This document shows, one piece after another, positions 34,854 to 55,563 of a stretch of DNA of 64,000 nucleotides. The stretch lies in the IMG/VR virus record IMGVR_UViG_2740892441_000001; one strand, given 5' to 3'. How positions within the stretch are numbered: the stretch's first letter is position 1; each line of letters begins with the position of its first letter. The translations under genes and the position numbers were made by a program. This DNA is from a virus. Lineage: Duplodnaviria; Heunggongvirae; Uroviricota; Caudoviricetes. A model generated the notes under the pieces. The model was not told the origin of the DNA, did not search any database, and saw only the letters and a list, made by a program, of their open reading frames with translations.

Positions 34854-36110
34854 CTATCGAGAACCACCAAGAATAACACGGTTTTTGACTGGATACCTAC
34901 GATGTACTGGATAGCCCAATGCGTCTGCACTATGCTCAATGCCACCTGTCTTATCCATATCTCGTGTTCCAGGCTTGTAGATGACCTTTTCCAGTGAATC
35001 AATCAAATGCTTGCACTTCGGATCGATATACAGCCGGATATCTCCAGATGCGGTCATCAGCATTCGGTTAACAGCATTAACACGATCCGCAATTGGCGGG
35101 TGCTTTTTCGAATAATCGACACGTAAGAATCCCTTCTCTTTGAATATGTCTACGTCAGACTCCCCGCGAGCATGTTGGCGATAAGCACCTGCCGGATCTG
35201 GAAATACCGTTATCTGTGATTTCCAGCGCCAGAAGCGCCTCTCAAGCTCATCACAAACCTCTGCCGTGTTAGAGGAAAAGAGCACCAATTCATCAATTGC
35301 CCATAGCTCACCATTTGGCTGAGGTTGCAAAATTACGGAAGACATCGGGTCAATGTTGAAGTCCTGTCCTACCCATATAGGCAACCGAGGGTTGAACTGA
35401 AGCGGTTTAACATGCACGTTTCGATCGAACGGGTAGTAAACGCGCCCGGACATATTTTCAAAGCTGGCCAGGTACTCCTGAGCGAACGATTTAGGGTCCA
35501 TATCGTTCTTAGCAGCTTCAATTTCCGCCGTAGGCACAAACGGCGAATCAGCAGTTACAAACTGCCAGCTCTTCCACTGTCCCTTTCTTTGCAGCTCTAC
35601 GTTCTGGCCTATAGTCCACAGTTTGTGAAATTCCGAGAAGCCTTTTGGCGTACCAATGATCAGTGCACCGCCGCGTGTCGATGAAAGAGTAGGTCGTAAC
35701 ACCTTGTACCAGGTGTCAGCCTTCATATCCTGAAATTCATCAAGCACTACAAAATGCAACGCTACGCCGCGCAGAGTGTCAGGTTTATCAGCACCTTTGA
35801 GGGCGATCTCCGAACCGTTCTTCAACACGATTGTCATCGTGGTGTCGTTCTTTTTCCTAACCCACTTACGGGGCAGAACTTCCTGTAGATCGTCCCACAA
35901 AATCTGGCGAGCCATCTGGTAAGTAGGAGCGACATACCAGACCCTTTGCTTTTTTTCCTTTGCCGCCGCACGAATAATAGTGGAGATCGACAACCGGGAT
36001 TTTCCCCAGCGTCGACCAGCACAAACAACTTTAAATCGATGCGGAGACTGGAAGACTTTCATCTGTCCAGAATGCAGTTGCACAAGACTGAGCGAGGACG
36101 GGATTGCCAT
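34854..36110 (-). CDS. terminase large subunit
   Basis: 418-aa ORF; Walker A VVCAGRRWGKS; C-terminal nuclease-type acidic residues. Confidence 0.8.
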   Translation of the reverse strand: MAIPSSLSLVQLHSGQMKVFQSPHRFKVVCAGRRWGKSRLSISTIIRAAAKEKKQRVWYVAPTYQMARQILWDDLQEVLPRKWVRKKNDTTMTIVLKNGSEIALKGADKPDTLRGVALHFVVLDEFQDMKADTWYKVLRPTLSSTRGGALIIGTPKGFSEFHKLWTIGQNVELQRKGQWKSWQFVTADSPFVPTAEIEAAKNDMDPKSFAQEYLASFENMSGRVYYPFDRNVHVKPLQFNPRLPIWVGQDFNIDPMSSVILQPQPNGELWAIDELVLFSSNTAEVCDELERRFWRWKSQITVFPDPAGAYRQHARGESDVDIFKEKGFLRVDYSKKHPPIADRVNAVNRMLMTASGDIRLYIDPKCKHLIDSLEKVIYKPGTRDMDKTGGIEHSADALGYPVHRRYPVKNRVILGGSR

Positions 36111-36742
36111 TATTCGTCCTCCCCTTCACTTCCATCATCTGTCGCATCAAATTCGCTTAGAGCTTCTTCTTCCAACGTCTCAAGCAATTCGTCATCGATG
36201 ATTTCAGGCTCGTCGTCTTCCTGACGTAATTTCGCCACCTGGGAAGGCGTAAGCTCACCAAATACCAGGTTCGGAATTTCTTCCTCGTCATTTTCCGCAT
36301 GATCCATGCCCAATGCTTTGGACGAAACTTCAAAGCATTTTGCAAGGGTATTACTGGCTCTCTGTAAGCTCTTGAGAGAACCCTCAATCGCCCCTAAAGG
36401 CTTACCCTCACGTTTGGCCGTAGTGACTTCGACCATCACCATCTGCCCCAACGCATACGCCCAGCCGTCATAACGTGTACGACGTTCTTCTATCTTTTCC
36501 GCACGGGCTTTAGCGCGAAGCTCTGCGTCAGATTTAAGAGACTCACGAACCATCTTCCCAACAGAGTCCGCGCCTTTCTCTAATCCTCGCTTTTTGAAAT
36601 GTCTGGAGAGTGTTTCACGACGAATGCCGTACTCTTCCTCCAGCTTTGAGAGTGTATATTCGCCTGACGTCCATTTGGCTTCAGCTTCGGCCCACTCCGC
36701 TGGTGTCAGGCGAGTTTTTACCTCGTCTTTTTCGACAGTCAT
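36110..36742 (-). CDS. terminase small subunit candidate
   Basis: 210-aa ORF immediately upstream of and overlapping terminase large subunit; acidic C-terminal tail. Confidence 0.5.
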   Translation of the reverse strand: MTVEKDEVKTRLTPAEWAEAEAKWTSGEYTLSKLEEEYGIRRETLSRHFKKRGLEKGADSVGKMVRESLKSDAELRAKARAEKIEERRTRYDGWAYALGQMVMVEVTTAKREGKPLGAIEGSLKSLQRASNTLAKCFEVSSKALGMDHAENDEEEIPNLVFGELTPSQVAKLRQEDDEPEIIDDELLETLEEEALSEFDATDDGSEGEDE

Positions 36743-42857: not shown

Positions 42858-43277
42858 ATGAAAGTAACAAACCTAATTATTCTGACACTAGCCACATCAC
42901 TAATTGGGTGTTCATCTTCATCTATATCTGTTTCAAAGGCAAAGTATGCGCCTCAAAGCAGAATATTTAAATATCAAACACCACATGAGTCTAGTCTAAC
43001 AATAGTTAGAGACAAAGGGCTGGTTGGTTCTGGATGTAACGCTTCCATATTCATCAATGGAGAAACGGCAGCAAAATTGGAACCTGGTGAAAAAGCAACT
43101 TTCTATCTTAATGAAGGAGATTGGATCGTTGGGACATCAATTGAAAGTTCAGGTCTTTGCGCATTTAACCCCTCTAGGATGGAGCGAGAAATAAAACTAA
43201 AGCAAGGCGACGCGAAAACATATCGGGTTTTCACTACCTGGGATGGTACAATGGATATATTGCCAACCACTTTATAA
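42858..43277 (+). CDS. lipoprotein
   Basis: 139-aa ORF; signal peptide with lipobox LIGC. Confidence 0.5.
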   Translation: MKVTNLIILTLATSLIGCSSSSISVSKAKYAPQSRIFKYQTPHESSLTIVRDKGLVGSGCNASIFINGETAAKLEPGEKATFYLNEGDWIVGTSIESSGLCAFNPSRMEREIKLKQGDAKTYRVFTTWDGTMDILPTTL

Positions 43278-43806
43278 TGATATGACGACGAAAGACATCA
43301 CCTACGGTGTGCCAGCAGAAGTCTGGCCTCGAGATTACACTAACGTTGAAAAACTACTGATGTTCTGGCGCAGAGAACAAATTCCTGTAAGGGCCACTCT
43401 AGAAGATGGCCAGGCGTTTTGCATGTACGTTTATGGCCTCATGCCATCTCGTAACAAAGTTGACCTTTGCCCAGCCCCTTTTGACAAAGAAAATCGTATA
43501 AGGCTCCCACTTGAACGCATTAGTACAATTGAATCAGGTGTGGTTGACAGTATCGCTCACGATTTCAAAGGTCGATTAACAGTTCACCCTGATTATGTCG
43601 ATAATCGGCCATCACGCCGCGATTTTTTTGCTATTTGCAACCAAGCCTATAAAGCAAACAAATCTATAAGGGTGTACATGGCGGATGGCCGTGAAATTGA
43701 GGGGGTGTCAGCAGGCGCAGATGCTTGTCAGGTTACACTACGTGTCGAGAACGGTAGAAAAATAGTTATTTTGTTCGATTGGGTTGAACGAATTTTGCCT
43801 TTTTGA
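43243..43806 (+). CDS. hypothetical protein
   Basis: 187-aa ORF; true start may be the internal Met about 40 nt downstream. Confidence 0.4.
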   Translation: MVQWIYCQPLYNDMTTKDITYGVPAEVWPRDYTNVEKLLMFWRREQIPVRATLEDGQAFCMYVYGLMPSRNKVDLCPAPFDKENRIRLPLERISTIESGVVDSIAHDFKGRLTVHPDYVDNRPSRRDFFAICNQAYKANKSIRVYMADGREIEGVSAGADACQVTLRVENGRKIVILFDWVERILPF

Positions 43807-44399: not shown

Positions 44400-45050
44400 A
44401 TGGCTAACATTATCATTTCTAAAAAATCCATCATTGAAGCTGCTTCCATTGTATCCGACGAGCTGCGCGAAAAAGCAGATCTGGCAACTCAAACATATAA
44501 CGAACATTATAAAAATGGTACGCACACTAAAGCAGACAAAGCAAATATGCAAGCTGCGACCACTAAACTTGCTTACTTCATCAACAACGTTGTAAACGCT
44601 GTTGAAGACGAAAAATTATGCTCTGTTTTCTACTATGCGATTAAAGCAAGCAAACAAGCGCCAGAAGTATTTTTCCGTGATGCAATGACTAATAGTTATT
44701 CACTGGAAAAACTGGTTTATCTGGTTAAATCTATTAAAGCTGGTAAATGCGTTTATTCCGTCGCTGATATGTCAGGATCTCGTGTATTCGCTTTAATCGA
44801 TATGATTAACGACGAGATCGACACGTTCACCAATGGCGCTGTTTTCGATTTAATGAATGAAGCTAAAAAAGCGTGTGAGATTAAATTGGACGCTGGCTAT
44901 ACTCAAGCCAACCAGTTGATCAATCTTTGCGAACGTCTCGGACTTGTTGAAAAAGTCAAAGGAGCTGGGAGCGCAAAAGCTGGTACTCAGCAATATCGCT
45001 TTATCAAGAATGATTTCTACAATTATCTAGCTGATGCTTTCAAAGCGTAA
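44400..45050 (+). CDS. hypothetical protein
   Basis: 216-aa ORF with good SD (AAGGAAAAA); followed by hairpin. Confidence 0.45.
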   Translation: MANIIISKKSIIEAASIVSDELREKADLATQTYNEHYKNGTHTKADKANMQAATTKLAYFINNVVNAVEDEKLCSVFYYAIKASKQAPEVFFRDAMTNSYSLEKLVYLVKSIKAGKCVYSVADMSGSRVFALIDMINDEIDTFTNGAVFDLMNEAKKACEIKLDAGYTQANQLINLCERLGLVEKVKGAGSAKAGTQQYRFIKNDFYNYLADAFKA

Positions 45051-45097
45051 TTAATGGAATCAAGCGCCCACTATGGGCGCTTTAAAGGAGCTTTAAA

Positions 45098-45301
45098 ATG
45101 GTCAGCTATGACAAGATCCGCGCGGAATATCGCGCAAAGTATCGCGCTTACAAACTGGAATTAATCGATGATTTGATCGCGCAACGCGACCAATTAAATT
45201 TTACGTTTTCTGATTTGCTTAACAGCAAGCGAGATTGCAAGCGCAAACGTGAATATTTACGTTTAAGCGCATTAATCGGAAAACTTCAAAATTCTATTTA
45301 A
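45098..45301 (+). CDS. hypothetical small protein
   Basis: 67-aa ORF with SD AAAGGAG. Confidence 0.35.
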   Translation: MVSYDKIRAEYRAKYRAYKLELIDDLIAQRDQLNFTFSDLLNSKRDCKRKREYLRLSALIGKLQNSI

Positions 45302-45321
45302 TTTTTTTAAGGAGCTTAATC

Positions 45322-45549
45322 ATGTTTGTTCTTATCGCTGGCGTTAACGTCCACAATGAATATTGTGTTAATGATATTGCTGGGATCGCTGGTTACGCTG
45401 GATCTGTTGAGCTTATAGATGAAACGACGCGCAAAATTGACTTATTGAGCGACCAGGAGCGAAAAAAAGCAGACGTGAACGACGCTGATATATTTTTAAT
45501 GTTAAAAGCGTTTGTAGAAATGGGATTTGAAATCAGTTTACATAAATAA
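45322..45549 (+). CDS. hypothetical small protein
   Basis: 75-aa ORF with SD AAGGAG; followed by terminator. Confidence 0.35.
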   Translation: MFVLIAGVNVHNEYCVNDIAGIAGYAGSVELIDETTRKIDLLSDQERKKADVNDADIFLMLKAFVEMGFEISLHK

Positions 45550-45554
45550 AATCG

Positions 45555-45579
45555 AGCGCCCACTATGGGCGCTTTTTTC
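45555..45579 (+). terminator. rho-independent terminator
   Basis: Hairpin agcgcccactatgggcgct plus T6; same hairpin also at about 45063-45081. Confidence 0.6.
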
Positions 45580-45600
45580 GTTTCCAATACTCCCACCATA

Positions 45601-45627
45601 ACGCGCCATCATTGGCGCGTTTTTTAT
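45601..45627 (+). terminator. rho-independent terminator
   Basis: Hairpin acgcgccatcattggcgcgt plus T6. Confidence 0.55.
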
Positions 45628-45984
45628 TGTCTTTAACTCACTCCAACAACATAAAAATAAGCGCCAAAATAACGCCATAGACGCGATTTTATATCCTCGC
45701 CAGTACATACCCATTACTTAACACATTAACGCGCTTAAAACGCGTTATATTGCGCTATAGAGTATGGTTAATCGTTGGCTTTTAGTCTTGCTTTATGATC
45801 CGCGTTTATTTGTCGGCGCGGATCGGCATTTTGTTTTGTTCCGTATCCGCTCGCGTATTATGTGCGCGTGATTTTTCACATAATCACACCACTTAATCAC
45901 GTATGTGATTATGCTACGAAAGAAATCTGGATGTCTCAGGCGACGAAAGTCATCATAATTTTCCCCGCTCACCTGTCCGACAAC

Positions 45985-46160
45985 CGCTGGTTGGATTCAA
46001 CCAGCTTCCCGATGTTTTTTCTATATAAAGGCGAATGCAGCCGTTTCCCGAAAAAATCCTGGCCGTTTCCCGTCGGCTCATGAATGCGTTCCTCGCCGTT
46101 TCTGAAAATTTCCCTGCGGCAGCTGGTGGCTATAGAGAAAGGGCCGTTTCTGGCCCTCTT
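45985..46160. repeat. iteron-like array (GCCGTTTCC units)
   Basis: About five direct copies: cagccgtttcccgaaaa, ggccgtttcccgtcgg, cgccgtttctgaaaa, gggccgtttctggccc. Confidence 0.55.
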
Positions 46161-46165
46161 CTCAG

Positions 46166-46648
46166 TTACACGCCATCAAGGATGTGGATGCGGTTGCTTG
46201 CGTATACATTCAGCATAAAGTTAGCGCAAAACAGTTTCCATGTATCAACGCCAGCGGTATACGTAATGTTTTTGCATTTAATCGCATTGTTGGCGATCCG
46301 CATCCCCTGCGATACTGCTTCATCGTCGGAAAATTTGAACGACGATTGAGTTTTAATCCAGACAGAAATCTGCGTAGCGAACTCAATCAGCTTGGACTGG
46401 CAGAATCGCCCGGAGCGCACCGGAAAGACGAACGTTCCGAATCCAGAATTTACCACATACGCTTTCTCAAATACCCGCGAGTAACGACGATTGCCAATGA
46501 TGTCGCGTGCAATAATGCATTTTTCTTGTGCTGACAGTTCTACCGTCTCATTGTCGCGCCATGCACCAAGTACTCGTTTTTCAATGTCAGAGAACGTTAC
46601 AGCGATATTGCCATGTGCGGGTGCGTTTACAGTAGCGATAAAATTCAT
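46166..46648 (-). CDS. hypothetical protein
   Basis: 160-aa ORF preceded by conserved promoter-like motif. Confidence 0.45.
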   Translation of the reverse strand: MNFIATVNAPAHGNIAVTFSDIEKRVLGAWRDNETVELSAQEKCIIARDIIGNRRYSRVFEKAYVVNSGFGTFVFPVRSGRFCQSKLIEFATQISVWIKTQSSFKFSDDEAVSQGMRIANNAIKCKNITYTAGVDTWKLFCANFMLNVYASNRIHILDGV

Positions 46649-46669
46649 GATTATTTCCTTATCGTAAAT

Positions 46670-46702
46670 AACAAATTGTTTTCTTGTTGGTGTTAATTAT
46701 CG
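46670..46702 (-). promoter_or_regulatory. conserved early promoter/operator motif
   Basis: aacaaattgttttcttgttggtgttaattatcg, one of at least 9 near-identical copies upstream of minus-strand genes. Confidence 0.5.
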
Positions 46703-46735
46703 TTGTACGAATAAGGCGTCAAAGTGGAAAGTTGC

Positions 46736-46826
46736 GGTAGCCGGACGGGAACAGGTGGGTTTTTCGGTTGCCTGGAGGTAAGAGGTTGGTGTTTTTAGCC
46801 TGCGGGAAACAGGATGGTCATTTAAG
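46736..46826. repeat. three direct ~30-bp repeats
   Basis: tagccggacgggaacaggtgggttttt / ggttgcctggaggtaagaggttggtgttttt / agcctgcgggaaacaggatggtcattt. Confidence 0.45.
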
Positions 46827-46852
46827 GCCACCAATGCTGGTGGCCTTAGTCT

Positions 46853-47134
46853 TTAGTGGAGCAGACCGATGTCGATGGTATCCCCTGAATCCCCCACACG
46901 GATCATCAGCATGGCGAAGGCGTTTAGTGGATAACTGGCGTGCCATTCAGGGAAGCGGTCATCTCGCATGAAGTCGGCAATGTCGTAAACGCAGCCCTCA
47001 AAGTGGAAGAATCGCGTGCTTACCTGCTCGTCATATTCCACATGATCCATTTCTTGCTGTTCTGTTTCCGGCAAGTCCAGCCATGATTCAAGGAATACAT
47101 TTTGTGCTTTAGGGGTAATGGTGAAATCAGTCAT
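46853..47134 (-). CDS. hypothetical protein
   Basis: Start moved to MTDFTITPK (AGGA SD). Confidence 0.4.
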   Translation of the reverse strand: MTDFTITPKAQNVFLESWLDLPETEQQEMDHVEYDEQVSTRFFHFEGCVYDIADFMRDDRFPEWHASYPLNAFAMLMIRVGDSGDTIDIGLLH

Positions 47135-47154
47135 GAGCATATCCTCACTGCGTA

Positions 47155-47186
47155 AACATATTGTTTTCTTGTTGGTGTAATTATCG
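47155..47186 (-). promoter_or_regulatory. conserved early promoter/operator motif
   Basis: acatattgttttcttgttggtgtaattatcgc. Confidence 0.45.
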
Positions 47187-47326
47187 CAGTGTAGATAAGG
47201 CATAAAAGAAGTTAATACAGGCTGAATACACAAGAAAGGTTCTGGAAGTTGATAGCCAGGTTTCAAACTAACCTTCGGTTATTAAAAGTCATTTAAGACC
47301 ACCAATGCTGGTGGCCTTAATAATTA

Positions 47327-47862
47327 TCGCCCGATTACGCTAAGGATCTTTTCCTCAACTGATTTGTTGTTGCGACTAAACTGCCTTGCGTATCTGATGA
47401 CAGAAGAGGCGTTTTGCTTTCTGACCATCTCGGCTCTTTCCTTCAGGCGTTTCTTGAAATCGCCCATATTTACCACCAGGCGCAGAACGTCAGTCTGTTA
47501 TTGTGAAAGTCGTAATTATTAATCAGCTCTTCTACAAGTGCTTTCAACTCCCCCACGTCACGCCAGTAATCTTCGTCATAATCCATGCTGCCAAAGTAAA
47601 AACCTCCAGTCGGCTCGAACTCATCCTGAGTAGGCAGAAGGGCTTCGCAATTACTCTCGTTGAGACGAATCAGAGTAGCCTTTAGAGCGCAAAGATCATT
47701 CTTTGTAATTTCTAAAAATTTAAAACTATCAACTTTGCCTACGTTCCGATTCACCCACCCAACAAGCGCATTAAACTTATAAAAATAGCCTACTTCCTTT
47801 CTGGCTGCTTCGTTATTCAGATCGTTTTTTGGCTGCGTCTCGATATAGATATCAAGTCCCAT
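47327..47862 (-). pseudogene. hypothetical protein, frame interrupted near 47470-47500
   Basis: 130-aa ORF 47470-47862 is followed by a 47-codon ORF in another frame that stays open across the stop; one added base gives a continuous ~176-aa frame. Confidence 0.35.
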
Positions 47863-48973: not shown

Positions 48974-49303
48974 TTACTCGAATACTTCAAGAAACTCCTG
49001 AACGTCCCAATGCTGGACGAGGTGAAGATAGACCTTAGAAATCACGTCATTTTCGCTATCGCATGTGAAGTAGTACTTCTGGCTGCGGTTGTATGTGTCC
49101 ACACAAAATTCGCTCATATCCATAAAGTCAGCATCTTCACCCATGTCGCAAATCATCAAAGCAGGTGCGTCATCACGAGTCATCAGCTCAAGCACCCACC
49201 GCGAATTGATCAGAGTGGAAGACCAACCTTCTAACTCATAAAACTGATCAAACTCTTTTTGAGTTAATTTCTTGATTTGGTTGATGTCGATATTTGCAAA
49301 CAT
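48974..49303 (-). CDS. hypothetical acidic protein
   Basis: 109-aa ORF preceded by conserved motif at about 49317-49350. Confidence 0.45.
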   Translation of the reverse strand: MFANIDINQIKKLTQKEFDQFYELEGWSSTLINSRWVLELMTRDDAPALMICDMGEDADFMDMSEFCVDTYNRSQKYYFTCDSENDVISKVYLHLVQHWDVQEFLEVFE

Positions 49304-49659
49304 AAATCAATCCTTAAACAACATGTTTTCTTATTGGTGTTATTATCGCAATAACGCATAGGCGAAAAAGGATTTTATTCCGGTGAATGTGGTTTTGGCA
49401 GTGAGTTTTCAGGTTCAGTACCGAGTACACTTTTTACATTATTCTGATTTAGTAGCCGAAGGTGGCTGGTGGGCAGAATAATCATCTCCCCGAAAACCTA
49501 CTGAAATCGATTGTGACCCGCTGACTGTCTGGCACAATTACGCTGTAGTTGGGCATTCAGAGGGAATCCAGCGGTAAGTAAGTTCGCCTGCACGTGAGCG
49601 CCTCTCTTCTTCCCGCACATTACAGGTGGATAGCCGCAACTCTCCCTCTCGCTATACCG

Positions 49660-49805
49660 GTACGCCGCCGTTCCTGAACCGGCATCGAGCCTTTTCCCGA
49701 AATCCACACAGGCAACTCGACCGTTTCCCTGAAAACCTCCAGCCGTTCCCCGAAGGCAACCCAGCCGTTTCTGTAGCGGGATGCAGCCTTTTCCCTGTAT
49801 GGACC
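49660..49805. repeat. iteron-like array (CCGTTTCC / CCTTTTCC units, six copies at ~20-30 bp spacing)
   Basis: gccgttcctgaacc, gccttttcccgaaatcc, accgtttccctgaaaacc, agccgttccccgaagg, agccgtttctgtagcgg, gccttttccctgtatgg. Confidence 0.55.
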
Positions 49806-50399
49806 GAAGGCTGACCGTAGGGGTGTTACGGGGGATAAAATCAGTAGTTGAATAAATACGAAAAAGGAGGCGACACCCCTCCTTCCCTCCCCACTTATAC
49901 ATACCTGGCTTCTTCGCTATGCATGTTGTGTTTTCTTCGTGTTTTATCTGTTTCAACCTCTCTATAGGCGTTAATGCTCACTCCTTCCAGAACGTTCTAT
50001 ACGGCAACTATTTCTGTTGGTGAATTGGGTGTGTTGTTTTCTCTGTCGGTGTATGTGGTTTCGTTCGTTTTGCGGTGGTTCTTCTATAGGGTGTTCTCGT
50101 CGTTTTGGTGATTGTTCTTCTCCGTCTATGGAGTAATGGCAGGTGGGCGATTCCTTTCGTTATTGTGTTTGAGTTGTTTGTCTGGAGTGCGTGAAGGGCT
50201 TTTGTAGTTATTCGTGTATTGGGTAATGGCGTTTCCCGTGATTGTTCTGTTTCGTGTCTTTTGGGATTGAAGAATCCTTGCGGTAACAGGCTTCGTTGGG
50301 GTTTCAGTGATTCTGGTGTTTCTTCGCTGTTTGGGTAATGGCGTGTCGTGGGTATCGCGCGTATGAATGTTTTCGGATTGCCTGTGAAAGTTAGGTTGG

Positions 50400-50465
50400 T
50401 TGTCCGGTAGCCTGGGAAGAAGAGGTGGGTCTTTTCGGTAGCCTGCCATAAAGAGGTTGGTTGTT
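50400..50465. repeat. direct repeat pair in GT-skewed noncoding tract
   Basis: cggtagcctgggaagaagaggtgggtctttt / cggtagcctgccataaagaggttggttgttttt. Confidence 0.45.
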
Positions 50466-50866
50466 TTTGGGAATGGCATATGCGTTATTTAGTTGTTTTG
50501 TTATGCCTGAAAATAAGTTGTTTATATGGTTATGTAACGCAACGGGAACGATTTTGAGCGTGTGTTTTTGTTGGTAGTGTGTTGGGTCGTCTGTGGTGAA
50601 AATTGGACGCTGTGGCGCTGTCTGCTGCGTAGGATTGCGGGTATAAGAAGTAATGTGTGAAAACGTCAATTTTTTAGACCAAATCGGGTGAAAGCGTTGA
50701 CGTTTCGTTGATCTGTTATTCAGTTGTTTTCTTGTTTGTATAAACAACTATAACCTATTGATATTTAAGGGTGTGATTGCAGGTATGGAAGGGGAGTAGT
50801 GGCGATCAACGGATTCTTATAGAAAAGAATCAAATTGTGACCGCCATTATCAATAAGTTGCAACCG

Positions 50867-51436
50867 TTAGTTGTTCAGATAAACATTTGGAACACGGACG
50901 TAGAAGTTCCTGTCACCGGTAAGTTCCAGAGTAATGTTAATGTCATTACCATTGTCTAGTGTAGCCGTTGCTCTATAGAACTTATCCGTCACCTTGTCCT
51001 CTATTGTCACCTTCATACATTTTGGTGCAGTCGAACCGTTATTCTCTTTCAGAATAGTTGTCACGAGAGGGCAGGCTGCTTCTTCAAGAGCAACCTCGTC
51101 CTTGTGTGGGATGCCGATGAAGATAATCCAAGCCAGCGACGCAACGATTATGATAAATGGCACTCTGCTGCCTTTTGTAATAGTCGCGCGCTTCCAGAGA
51201 TAGACAGGCAGGAGGAATACCCCCCATAGAATTGAAGGTGGTTCACAGCCAGACTCCGATAGAGCCATTCTGTCAGCTACTAACAAACCGATGGTAGTTA
51301 CACCCCCAATTATAATAGCGTAATTGGTATACTCTTCCGGCAATACTCCAAAGAAGAAAGGCATGAACGCTAGAATCCACGCATAAATGTTATTCAGAGG
51401 TTTTGTTTGTTGGTTCTGGGTTTCCATCACATCCAT
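50867..51436 (-). CDS. hypothetical membrane protein
   Basis: 189-aa ORF with several TM helices in N-terminal half. Confidence 0.4.
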   Translation of the reverse strand: MDVMETQNQQTKPLNNIYAWILAFMPFFFGVLPEEYTNYAIIIGGVTTIGLLVADRMALSESGCEPPSILWGVFLLPVYLWKRATITKGSRVPFIIIVASLAWIIFIGIPHKDEVALEEAACPLVTTILKENNGSTAPKCMKVTIEDKVTDKFYRATATLDNGNDINITLELTGDRNFYVRVPNVYLNN

Positions 51437-52271: not shown

Positions 52272-54305
52272 TTACTTAACCTGGTGGCCAGGTTTAGCAC
52301 CAGCATCCGGGCTTAACAGGAAGATGTCTTTCCCGCCGGGGCCAGCAGCCATCACCATGCCTTCGGAGATACCGAAACGCATTTTACGCGGAGCCAGGTT
52401 AGCCACCATAATGGTGTGACGGCCAATCAGTGCCTGTGGGTCTGGATAAGCGGAACGGATGCCTGAGAAGACATTGCGTTTTTCACCGCCGAGATCCAGC
52501 GTCAGGCGCAGCAGTTTGTCAGAACCTTCAACAAAGTCTGCGTTTTCGATCAGCGCCACGCGCAGGTCAACTTTGGCAAAGTCGTCAAAGGTGATGGTTT
52601 CCTGAATCGGGTCGTCTGCCAGCGGGCCAGTAACTGGCGCGGCAGTAGCTTTCACTTCTTCTTTAGACGCTTCCACCAATGCTTCCACCTGTTTCATGTC
52701 GATACGGTTATACAGTGCTTTGAACGGATTCACTTTATGGCCCAGCAGCGGTTGCTGGATACCATCCCAGGTCAGTTCTGTATTCAGGAATGCTTCTGCA
52801 CGTTCAGTCAGTTTCGGCAGTACCGGCTTCAGGTACGTCATCAGCACGCGGAACAGGTTAATGCCCATAGAGCAAATCGCCTGCAGATCGGCATCGCGTC
52901 CTTCCTGCTTCGCCACCACCCACGGAGCCTGTTCATCGACATAGCGGTTAGCCAGGTCAGCCAATGCCATGATTTCACGGATAGCTTTACCAAATTCGCG
53001 GCTTTCCCATGCTTCGCCAATCACTTCAGCGGCATCAGTAAAGGTTTTGTACAGTTGCGAGTCAGCCAGTTCGCTTGCCAGCACGCCGTCAAAACGCTTG
53101 TTGATAAAGCCTGCATTACGGGAGGCCAGGTTAACCACTTTGTTCACGATATCGGCATTCACGCGCTGAACGAAATCCTCCAGGTTGAGATCGATATCAT
53201 CAATGCGCGAAGAGAGTTTCGCAGTGTAGTAGTAACGCAGGCTGTCGGCGTCAAAATGATTCATCCAGGTGCTGGCTTTAATAAAGGTGCCGCGAGACTT
53301 GGACATCTTCGCGCCGTTCACCGTCACATAGCCGTGAACAAACAGGTTGGTCGGCTTGCGGAAGTTGCTGCCTTCCAGCATGGCAGGCCAGAACAGGCTG
53401 TGGAAGTAAACGATATCTTTACCGATGAAGTGGTACAGCTCGGCGGTGGAGTCTTTCTTCCAGTATTCATCGAAGCTGGTAGTGTCGCCGCGCTTGTCGC
53501 ACAGATTCTTGAAGGAACCCATGTAGCCAATCGGTGCGTCCAGCCAGACGTAGAAATATTTACCCGGCGCGTTCGGAATTTCAAAACCGAAGTAAGGTGC
53601 GTCGCGGGAGATATCCCACTGTTGCAGACCAGATTCAAACCACTCCTGCATTTTGTTTGCCACCTGCTCCTGCAACGCACCGCTGCGGGTCCATGCCTGC
53701 AACATTTCGCTGAAAGAGGGCAGATCAAAGAAGAAGTGTTCAGAATCACGCATTACCGGCGTAGCGCCAGAAACTACCGATTTCGGCTCAATCAGTTCAG
53801 TCGGGCTGTAGGTCGCGCCGCAAACTTCACAGTTATCGCCGTATTGATCTGGCGCTTTACATTTCGGACAGGTGCCTTTCACAAAACGATCCGGCAGGAA
53901 CATGCCTTTTTCCGGGTCGTACAACTGAGAGATAGTGCGGTTTTTAATAAAACCGTTCTCTTTCAGGCGAGTATAGATAAGCTCAGACAGCTGGCGGTTC
54001 TCTTCGCTGTGCGTCGAGTGATAGTTGTCATAGCTGATGTTAAAGCCTGCGAAATCAGTCTGGTGTTCCTGGCTCATTTCGCCAATCATCTGTTCCGGTG
54101 TGATACCAAGCTGCTGTGCTTTCAGCATGATCGGCGTACCGTGGGCATCGTCGGCGCAGATGAAGTTGACCTCGTGGCCGCGCATTCGCTGGTAACGGAC
54201 CCAGACATCAGCCTGGATGTGCTCCAGCATATGGCCGAGGTGGATTGAGCCGTTAGCGTACGGCAGCGCGCACGTCACCAGAATTTTCTTCGCGACTTGG
54301 GTCAT
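52272..54305 (-). CDS. metG: methionine--tRNA ligase
   Basis: 677-aa protein from [25 protein letters not shown] (HLGH, KMSKS motifs, C-terminal tRNA-binding domain); matches E. coli MetG as I recall it; the 43-codon N-terminal extension in the ORF track is rejected. Confidence 0.95.
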
Positions 54306-54462
54306 AGTAGGCATTACTTCTTTGTAGTGAAAAGGGGCTTGATAGTAACAAAATGGCCTTATGTCTGCCATGTGATAACAGCATTTCTCATAAATGATTA
54401 AATGTCGTAGCTGGAGTACACTACAAGGCGACAATTGCGCAAATTAAAATAAAGGAGACGGG

Positions 54463-55563
54463 ATGAGCGAGTCCAAATCGCCGGATGCCCTGAGAGCAAT
54501 GGTAGCCGGTACGCTGGCTAATTTTCAGCACCCAACCCTGAAGCACAACCTGACTACGCTTAAAGCGTTACACCATGTTGCGTTGATGGATGACACACTG
54601 CATGTCGAACTAATCATGCCTTTCGTGTGGAATAAGCCTTTTGAAGACCTGAAAGAGCAATGTAGTGGTGATCTGCTCCGTATCACTGGCGCAAAGGCTA
54701 TCGACTGGAAGCTGTCGTACAACATTGCCACGCTTAAGCGCGTCAAAAACCAACCAGGCATTAATGGCGTTAAGAACATCATCGCCGTCAGCTCAGGCAA
54801 GGGCGGTGTAGGCAAATCGTCCACAGCAGTAAACTTGGCACTGGCGTTGGCTGCTGAAGGTGCGAAAGTTGGTATTTTGGATGCCGATATCTACGGTCCA
54901 TCAATTCCAACCATGCTGGGTGCGGAAAACCAACGTCCAACCTCACCGGACGGTACTCACATGGCACCTATCATGTCTCATGGCCTGGCAACCAACTCTA
55001 TTGGTTATCTGGTCACCGACGACAATGCAATGGTGTGGCGTGGACCGATGGCCAGCAAGGCGTTAATGCAGATGTTGCAGGAAACTCTATGGCCTGATCT
55101 GGACTATCTCGTTCTCGATATGCCGCCGGGCACTGGTGATATTCAATTGACGCTGGCGCAGAACATTCCTGTAACTGGTGCTGTTGTGGTAACTACGCCG
55201 CAAGATATCGCGCTGATCGATGCGAAGAAAGGCATTGTGATGTTCGAAAAAGTCGAAGTGCCGGTACTGGGTATCGTCGAAAACATGAGTGTGCATATTT
55301 GCAGTAACTGCGGTCATCACGAGCCAATTTTTGGCACCGGTGGCGCACAGAAGCTGGCCGAGAAATACAACACGCAGTTGTTAGGCCAAATGCCACTTCA
55401 TATCTCTCTTCGTGAAGATCTGGATAACGGAACACCAACCGTTATTAGTCGTCCAGATAGCGAATTTACGGCTATTTATCGTGACCTCGCAGATCGCGTT
55501 GCTGCCCAAATGTATTGGCAAGGTGAAGTAATACCTGGCGAAATCGCATTCCGCGCAGTGTGA
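54463..55563 (+). CDS. apbC: Fe-S cluster carrier ATPase ApbC/Mrp
   Basis: 366-aa ORF; deviant Walker A SGKGGVGKSS; CxxC motif; divergent from metG as in enterobacterial chromosomes. Confidence 0.95.
   Translation: MSESKSPDALRAMVAGTLANFQHPTLKHNLTTLKALHHVALMDDTLHVELIMPFVWNKPFEDLKEQCSGDLLRITGAKAIDWKLSYNIATLKRVKNQPGINGVKNIIAVSSGKGGVGKSSTAVNLALALAAEGAKVGILDADIYGPSIPTMLGAENQRPTSPDGTHMAPIMSHGLATNSIGYLVTDDNAMVWRGPMASKALMQMLQETLWPDLDYLVLDMPPGTGDIQLTLAQNIPVTGAVVVTTPQDIALIDAKKGIVMFEKVEVPVLGIVENMSVHICSNCGHHEPIFGTGGAQKLAEKYNTQLLGQMPLHISLREDLDNGTPTVISRPDSEFTAIYRDLADRVAAQMYWQGEVIPGEIAFRAV

Follow-up and report, generated by a model that had tools for sequence, protein, structure and literature searches.

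What does a cluster of short direct repeats do in the noncoding DNA of a tailed virus? The cluster lies at about positions 45,985 to 46,160 of IMG/VR virus record IMGVR_UViG_2740892441_000001 (Caudoviricetes), a stretch of 64,000 nucleotides that was analysed as a whole and is called the window here. The initial annotation described iteron-like units and proposed that they form a replication origin, an incompatibility locus or an array bound by a packaging protein. We find that the cluster (array A) has a counterpart elsewhere in the window (array B), and the sequences of the two argue strongly for a pair of helically phased arrays that serve as docking sites for a conserved protein encoded by the element and that do not depend on the replication initiator RepA. 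A role of the pair in lytic replication is the function that we favour, tentatively, over several others that are weighed below.

Positions 45000-47500 of the window match Escherichia phage Cyrano (pLF82) at 96.6% and, at lower identity, plasmids of E. coli, Klebsiella, Enterobacter, Salmonella and Yersinia. The region was matched in 246 of 5,426 complete E. coli genomes, in every one of them on a plasmid, and in 723 PLSDB plasmids (Klebsiella, Escherichia, Enterobacter, Yersinia, Salmonella). On the basis of the matches to Cyrano (pLF82) and to enterobacterial plasmids, we assign the window to a phage-plasmid of the SSU5/pLF82/pHCM2/pMT1 type. As reference we used NZ_AP027904.1, a 96%-identical E. 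coli plasmid annotated by PGAP, which encodes tail, capsid and terminase proteins, a DnaB-like helicase, a primase, the alpha subunit of DNA polymerase III (Pol III) and RepA, and which carries the resistance gene dfrA51.

Array A consists of matches to GCCGTTTCC (at most one mismatch) on the plus strand, with starts at 46040, 46062, 46095 and 46143 and hence start-to-start spacings of 22, 33 and 48 bp. Such clustering is not expected by chance: across 300 dinucleotide-preserving shuffles of the window, a same-strand cluster within 130 bp never exceeded two matches, whereas the real window holds one cluster of four and one of five. The units and their immediate surroundings are as follows.

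45554-45574 and 45600-45621, plus strand: two tandem intrinsic terminators (-15.5 and -15.7 kcal/mol; z -4.2 and -4.9) that close the left side of the noncoding region
45880-45913, no strand assigned: three TAATCAC(A) half sites, including the palindrome aatcacgtatgtgatt (45893-45910); a motif distinct from the array units
About 46001-46011, plus strand: a fifth, degenerate unit, CAGCTTCCCG (minus strand: CGGGAAGCTG), some 39 bp from A1
46012-46029, no strand assigned: short A+T-rich patch, ATGTTTTTTTCTATATAAA, beside A1, with the counterparts TTTATGTAGAAAAC and GAAAAATTTGTATAGA in other clades
46040-46054, plus strand: unit A1, GCCGTTTCCCGAAAA (TTTTCGGGAAACGGC on the minus strand), with a core that does not vary among 15 representatives covering all clades
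46062-46077, plus strand: unit A2, GCCGTTTCCCGTCGGC, of the form GCCG-N8-CGGC, 22 bp from A1
46095-46119, plus strand: unit A3, GCCGTTTCTGAAAA, with the adjoining half unit TTTCCCTGCGG (46109-46119), 33 bp from A2; conserved
46122-46129, plus strand: Chi sequence, GCTGGTGG, within array A; CCACCAGC is retained on the minus strand in most clades
46135-46163, minus strand: intrinsic terminator of the gene at 46166-46648 (hairpin of -17.7 kcal/mol, z -4.25)

When the 15 representatives were aligned, the 45 bp that span A2 and A1 proved almost invariant, with the two units always 22 bp apart, and the 17-bp spacer between A3 and A2 was free in sequence and fixed in length. A block CGGGAG/CGGGAA is conserved in other clades at the position of the degenerate unit, which is weak evidence for that unit. 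The copy at 46143 is of another kind. Its positions 46143-46151 form the loop and 3′ arm of the hairpin at 46135-46163, and this hairpin has the marks of an intrinsic terminator: it is G+C-rich, is followed by a U-tract, stands at a gene end and shows compensatory change between clades (GGGCC/GGCCC versus GGGGC/GCCCC in the stem). Because the 46143 copy is part of this conserved terminator, it may not be a true unit; it also lies 46-48 bp from A3, which is outside the helical phase. Array A therefore comprises three firm units and one or two degenerate ones. The A+T-rich patch beside A1, at about 18 bp, is too short to be named an unwinding element.

Much of what had been described at this locus holds, with some corrections. 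The count of about five repeats some 20-35 bp apart was a fair one, as four GCCGTTTCC matches, a degenerate copy and a half unit are present and such a cluster is absent from the shuffles. The location is noncoding as described, since neither PGAP nor the Cyrano record annotates a gene between about 45550 and 46165. Of the two hairpins that had been taken for terminators, that at 46135-46163 (minus strand) is one; the other, CTGGTTGGATTCAACCAG at 45986-46005 (-13.7 kcal/mol), is not convincing, as it has no U-tract directly after it and is restricted to the E. coli clade. The inverted repeat aatcacgtatgtgatt does exist, but it lies outside the interval that had been delimited and belongs to a different motif. 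Array A sits in 540 bp of noncoding DNA that transcription approaches from both sides and in which terminators close both strands, and for this reason it has no downstream gene to regulate.

The initial annotation missed array B, which lies 3.6 kb away in the same orientation and is the more regular of the two. A third array was found neither in the rest of the window nor in the rest of the reference plasmid NZ_AP027904.1. Array B and its flank hold the following features.

49667-49794, plus strand: array B, six units with starts at 49667, 49689, 49720, 49742, 49764 and 49786 (spacings 22/31/22/22/22 bp)
49861-49887, minus strand: intrinsic terminator directly 5′ of array B in the minus direction, conserved in other clades
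49920-50760, minus strand: unannotated stretch of about 850 nt, C/A-rich and G/T-poor, that runs into the terminator at 49861-49887

Both arrays contain a double unit (GGrAACGGC, 6 bp, TTTTCrGGGAAACGG), and because it is common to both we regard them as paralogous. Read on the minus strand, each array begins just past an intrinsic terminator (46135-46163 and 49861-49887, respectively). Since terminators flank them, with two more on the other strand in the case of array A, both arrays are predicted to be shielded from incoming transcription, and such shielding is frequent for cis-acting origins and centromeres. The stretch beyond array B has a strong compositional bias, with a GC skew of +0.4 to +0.5 and an AT skew down to -0.6 on the plus strand. 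PGAP calls no gene in 49303-50867, and the C/A-rich composition is conserved in 69 loci (median A+C of 66%, against a background of 51%). RNA made from the minus strand of 49920-50760 could, by its composition, hardly fold and could be a good substrate for Rho; the stretch might give rise to an unstructured long RNA or serve as a Rho-loading zone. The open reading frames (ORFs) listed within it look like artefacts of the T-poor strand.

How general are these arrays? Through the gene for a protein of 160 amino acids (aa) beside array A, we gathered 83 related loci, 77 from IMG/VR and six from GTDB genomes (Kluyvera, Buttiauxella, Yersinia and one metagenome-assembled genome), which together with the window itself make 84 loci examined. 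Array A directly follows the 160-aa gene in 79 of the 84, at +18, +66, +99 and +121 from the stop codon, and array B is present in 72 of them, at 1.5-4.2 kb from array A and always in the same orientation. Among named elements, array A was seen in SSU5 (a phage), pKPHS1 (Klebsiella) and pMT1 (Y. pestis), and array B in the first two of these. Across 184 distinct unit contexts the information is held by a core of about 10 bp, CRGGAAACGGC (minus strand), and units are spaced by 22 bp (233 times), 31, 33/34 or 44-48 bp. Because spacings of 22, 31, 33/34 and 44 bp fit whole helical turns, with the 46-48 bp to the 46143 copy as an exception, the units lie on one face of the DNA. The label "iteron-like" was therefore a fair one for phased direct repeats with a dominant 22-bp period, cores invariant across genera and drifting spacers.

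Nothing comparable was found at the level of RNA. Rfam gave no match at E ≤ 1 save an unrelated one of 23 bits, consensus folds of either strand of array A had weak energies with a double change in only 1 of 26 and 1 of 23 predicted pairs outside the terminator, and no RNA covariation was found on either strand of the 320-nt region beyond it. Given the invariant cores, the free spacers of constant length, the helical phasing and the lack of covariation, the arrays fit protein-binding DNA with sites on one helix face rather than RNA. They bracket a variable gene block, the gene content of which differs among relatives: the genes between the arrays are present in 34 to 77 of the 83 loci, and at least one of them (CYRAN_109) is expressed in the Cyrano lysogen, a prophage that ciprofloxacin induces 39-fold in LF82 (PMC9928086). 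The literature searched on the family describes iterons only near repA (PMC6735626) and gives no account of these arrays, which appear to be undescribed so far.

The search for a Rep-type initiator that the initial annotation had called for was run, and its outcome speaks against the simplest origin reading: repA, with iterons of its own, was found at 1-1056 of NZ_AP027904.1, outside the window; the arrays, near 75.0 and 78.7 kb in the same record, are some 35 kb away. The E. coli clade has (A/T)(A/T)CCACTATAGAGAG iterons and TTATCCACA boxes on the flanks of repA. The RepA of a Klebsiella-clade plasmid is 51.5% identical to that of the E. coli clade and is accompanied by nine TATGCTGTCAGCGGT iterons. 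Nevertheless, the GGAAACGGC cores of the arrays are identical in the two clades. Because the cores stay constant while RepA and its iterons change, the arrays are neither the RepA iteron origin nor a RepA-titrating incompatibility locus; their motif is also a different one, and repA is distant. What we prefer, tentatively, is a RepA-independent origin or incompatibility determinant. As a separate observation, the RepA origin region appears to be duplicated upstream of repA in NZ_AP027904.1 (L004 14520-14810 and 14930-15240), each block holding TTATCCACA-type boxes, GATC-rich repeats and five to six CCACTATAGAGAG iterons, and repA is followed by still more iterons.

When IMG/VR was scanned for pairs of units at a distance of 22 bp (GGAAACGG-N14-GGAAACGG), many contigs with no relation to the window came up. 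Most of the inspected unrelated loci with at least three phased units look like origin iterons, being either gene-internal and joined to a GATC/AT-rich block or placed beside a Rep-like ORF, and unit A2 (GCCGACGGGAAACGGC) is identical to their GCCGAATGGAAACGGC iteron at 14 of 16 positions. Among them, L173 (4369-5358), L111 (512-1612) and about 20 more IMG/VR loci encode phage proteins of 320-366 aa that have no Pfam match; each of these genes holds five 22-bp GCCGAATGGAAACGGC iterons followed by a GATC/AT-rich block, so that the family looks, from its sequences, like a lambda-O-type initiator with an internal origin. The arrays share with these loci the phased repeats of about 22 bp and the GCCG-N8-CGGC form with its GGAAACGGC core, of which there are five copies there. 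Unlike them, the arrays are intergenic and have no GATC/AT-rich block, and the plasmid has no homologue of the O-like protein; the likeness is therefore one of resemblance and not of membership.

What, then, might bind the arrays? Four genes or gene pairs need to be considered at this point.

7127-8151, minus strand: type Ib partition pair, a 222-aa ParA (NF041546, 5e-33) and an overlapping 119-aa protein with a segment like a ribbon-helix-helix (RHH)
43243-43806, plus strand: FljA homologue (PF03614, 1e-83) with a weak Hfq-like match in its C-terminal part (E 0.006), present in 77 of the 83 loci
44400-45050, plus strand: 216-aa gene (phrog_1513), the product of which is modelled as a helical bundle with a C-terminal winged helix-turn-helix
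46166-46648, minus strand: 160-aa gene (phrog_1641), which always directly precedes array A

The 216-aa gene is present in 80 of the 83 loci, lies 1 kb left of array A and encodes an invariant putative recognition helix, and its winged-helix product is, by its model, the nearest candidate binder of the arrays. The idea that it regulates its own expression through the units was discarded, since the unit is absent from its promoter region. Another candidate binder is a 249-aa protein encoded upstream of the DnaB-like helicase, in what would be the initiator position; it could not be recognised as an initiator, as it has no relatives in Pfam, PHROG functions, NCBIfam or the PDB even when a profile of 23 sequences is used. 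The 160-aa protein has a confidently predicted fold that is without a structural relative.

The partition pair, to which PGAP gives merely the names "AAA family ATPase" and "hypothetical", was rejected as a partner of the arrays, as neither its distribution nor its flanking DNA fits. The RHH-like protein is 90-100% conserved in plasmids of Escherichia, Klebsiella, Enterobacter and Salmonella, and Yersinia is absent from the genera listed for the 797 plasmids that encode it, a list from which single records at most could be missing; yet 55 Yersinia plasmids match the query region that includes array A, and the array itself was read directly in pMT1. Moreover, the array unit is absent from the flanks of the par operon in both the E. 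coli and the Klebsiella clade. A separate motif touches both places. The octamer TAATCACA, which makes up the palindrome noted initially, occurs at 45881, 45894 and 45904 and again at 8259/8276 and 12847, and in the E. coli clade it recurs just upstream of parA as TGTGATT-N10-AATCACA. It resembles the WATCACW heptads that are the binding sites of the omega RHH protein, and TGTGATTATGTGAAT is retained near array A in most non-Klebsiella clades. The Klebsiella clade has neither a copy at parA nor the motif near array A, and so a link between the palindrome and the par promoter was set aside as a loose lead.

Taken together, these data lead us to propose, as a tentative reading that we hold to be possible rather than probable, that the arrays are a RepA-independent bipartite replication locus, either a lytic origin or an origin with an enhancer. 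A sequence-specific protein encoded by the element and conserved across the SSU5/pHCM2/pMT1 family would bind the units cooperatively, and the DNA would be wrapped in the resulting nucleoprotein complex. Two such complexes, one on each array, could then pair, looping out the accessory block of 1.5-4 kb, and the arrays would act as origin, or as an origin-plus-enhancer pair, for the replisome that the element itself encodes (DnaB-like helicase, primase, Pol III alpha) during lytic growth. The same locus would double as an incompatibility or titration determinant. A second origin is to be expected of an element that has helicase, primase and polymerase genes of its own. In favour of this proposal are the non-random clusters, their fixed position and orientation, their independence of RepA and their likeness to origin iterons elsewhere, as well as the flanking terminators, the helical phasing, the lack of RNA covariation and the conserved winged-helix gene beside the region.

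Known origins offer partial parallels. Like the iterons of Rep_3/IncFIB-type replicons (P1 oriR with incA, RepFIB, R6K, RK2), the arrays are direct repeats of about 22 bp, three to six per array, with conserved cores and free spacers, set in two arrays of the same orientation a few kb or less apart. Unlike those iterons, their unit is unrelated to the iterons of the element's own RepA, they have no adjacent initiator gene and neither DnaA boxes nor GATC clusters, and their conserved core is about 10 bp long rather than 17-22 bp. In P4 (ori and crr) and in R6K (gamma with alpha or beta), two clusters of initiator-binding repeats several kb apart cooperate by looping, but there the initiator is encoded between or beside the clusters, whereas here variable accessory genes intervene.

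Several observations weigh against a replication locus. Iteron origins normally lie inside or beside the initiator gene, and neither array adjoins one. DnaA boxes (TTATCCACA) and GATC clusters are absent at arrays A and B, unlike at the repA origin, and the A+T patches there measure just 18-30 bp or so. Convergent transcription, as at array A, is a feature of termini or passive cis sites more than of origins. Searches of the whole plasmid with phmmer, hmmsearch and hhalign found no homologue of the O-like family, the best E-values (0.05-0.2) coming from translated repeats. Nor do the candidate binders help: the 160-aa protein has no recognisable DNA-binding fold, the promoter region of the 216-aa gene has no array unit, and nothing ties the 216-aa winged-helix protein physically to the arrays. 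A wider form of the proposal, in which A and B would be an insulated bipartite cis-element of a new family-specific binder (the 216-aa protein or the 160-aa protein with its novel fold) that serves as a lytic origin or as a new pairing or partition system, strikes us as unlikely; it would take in the conserved, unfoldable 850-nt C/A-rich leader of array B, which resembles a rut site.

Two other functions are close rivals of a replication locus. A regulator bound at array B, upstream, and at array A as an auxiliary downstream site might loop the 3.6 kb between them and repress or insulate the accessory block. Looping of this kind is known from CI at lambda OL/OR and from the auxiliary lac, gal and ara operators, and P2-type repressors use direct repeats 22 bp apart. 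Lambda OL/OR resemble the arrays in being two clusters of at least three sites spaced by about 23 bp, 2-4 kb apart and flanking genes expressed in the lysogen; they are, however, palindromic and overlap promoters, whereas the array units are asymmetric, direct and without a recognisable promoter overlap. Array B does have a terminator on one side and the first gene of a co-directional block on the other, the two arrays enclose precisely the variable block, and the genes active in the Cyrano lysogen include some from this block (CYRAN_109), but the gene for the putative master repressor of Cyrano (CYRAN_45) lies elsewhere (PMC9928086). The sole sigma-70-like match before the block lies about 270 bp beyond array B, no gene lies downstream of array A, and six phased sites are many for an operator, all of which makes such an operator doubtful. 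The arrays might instead be centromere-like partition or pairing sites, in the manner of pB171 parC1/parC2, for the type Ib ParA/RHH pair (7127-8151) or for a system not recognised as such. Phased short direct repeats that flank an operon and are bound by RHH or winged-helix proteins are found in pB171 parC1/parC2, R1 parC, pSK41 parC and tubC, and the arrays are likewise clusters of such repeats, located at an operon's 3′ end in DNA shielded from transcription. The small ParA and its RHH-like partner lack an obvious adjoining repeat array, and the arrays persist in derivatives that are plasmids only (pMT1 and the 62-kb E. albertii plasmid). Against this stand the distance of 38 kb to the sole par operon, which has the unit on neither flank, the lack of any nucleoside triphosphatase gene linked to the arrays, and the Yersinia plasmids of the pMT1 type, which keep array A and appear to lack that par system, Yersinia being unlisted among the genera that encode the RHH protein. 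We consider a partition site unlikely, and somewhat more so than an operator.

The remaining explanations are less probable still. The arrays could be patches of homology that, aided by Chi, anchor the exchange of gene cassettes and need no dedicated binding protein. The content between them is indeed highly variable, with 1.5 to 4.2 kb from one array to the other, array A is exactly where megablast homology to distant relatives begins, a mosaic junction is visible beside array A in L007, and four Chi sites lie on the plus strand between 46122 and 49465, one of them within array A. Anchors of this sort would not need helical phasing, a constant spacer length or a 10-bp core held invariant in four to six copies, and direct repeats around the block would favour its deletion, so that we judge this improbable. 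Still less credible is a repeated RNA motif, by which the transcribed arrays would act as a small RNA or as a protein sponge, for example for the FljA-like protein (43243-43806). FljA is a post-transcriptional repressor of phase-1 flagellin, its RNA-binding homologue (PF03614, 1e-83) is encoded 2.3 kb away and the motif is repeated and conserved; the arrays, on the other hand, have no Rfam match, show weak folds with essentially no covariation on either strand, stand directly behind terminators and have no convincing promoter or terminator that would delimit a transcript. At the bottom of the scale we place a control locus related to RepA, acting by incA-like handcuffing, or a pac site of the terminase. 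For these speak a general likeness to iterons and the string CTATAGAGA in array A, which resembles the RepA iteron core but is confined to the E. coli clade. Against them, neither clade has RepA iterons related to the unit, the unit stays constant when RepA changes, and CTATAGAGA is not conserved. As for packaging, two arrays in direct orientation at 9-13 kb from terS and terL (34854-36742) make a binding array for the packaging protein unlikely, since a pac or cos site would be expected as a single locus within or beside the small terminase gene.

Some further observations concern the surroundings of the arrays and the element at large. The stretch 45600-45980 and its homologues in other clades are noncoding, yet conserved like coding DNA; they contain many short motifs of the ACGCG/CACGTC type and small palindromes, and neither a conserved ORF nor RNA covariation was found in them. 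The window has 15 Chi sequences where about two are expected, and four of these (GCTGGTGG at 46122, 46836, 47307 and 49465, plus strand) stand in the same orientation within or beside the array-bracketed block. Adjoining the studied region are a full-length gene for methionyl-tRNA synthetase (52272-54434) and one for an ApbC/Mrp-type P-loop ATPase (54463-55563). One Escherichia albertii plasmid of 62 kb (CP043251.1; L210) is a deletion derivative that has no virion genes annotated in the 50 kb inspected and retains repA, the par pair, the replisome genes and the entire array-bracketed region. A contig labelled "MAG: Bacillota bacterium" (JAEWTL010000044.1; L007) encodes a 160-aa protein that is 99% identical to that of the E. 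coli phage-plasmid, and its label is probably a binning error.

Phage-plasmids of the SSU5/pHCM2/pMT1 type are common and carry resistance genes. Their RepA replicon is routinely typed, and the literature searched is silent on how their lytic replication begins and on the control of their accessory block. If the wider form of the proposal is true, one element would be common to Y. pestis pMT1, to plasmids of the S. Typhi pHCM2 type and to clinical plasmids, hundreds of them, from E. coli, Klebsiella and Enterobacter, and it would constitute a universal incompatibility determinant across differing RepA types. A cis-element that does not vary with RepA would offer a direct way to locate the lytic origin of these phage-plasmids or their regulator, a candidate determinant of incompatibility across clades, and a conserved target for curing or detecting them.

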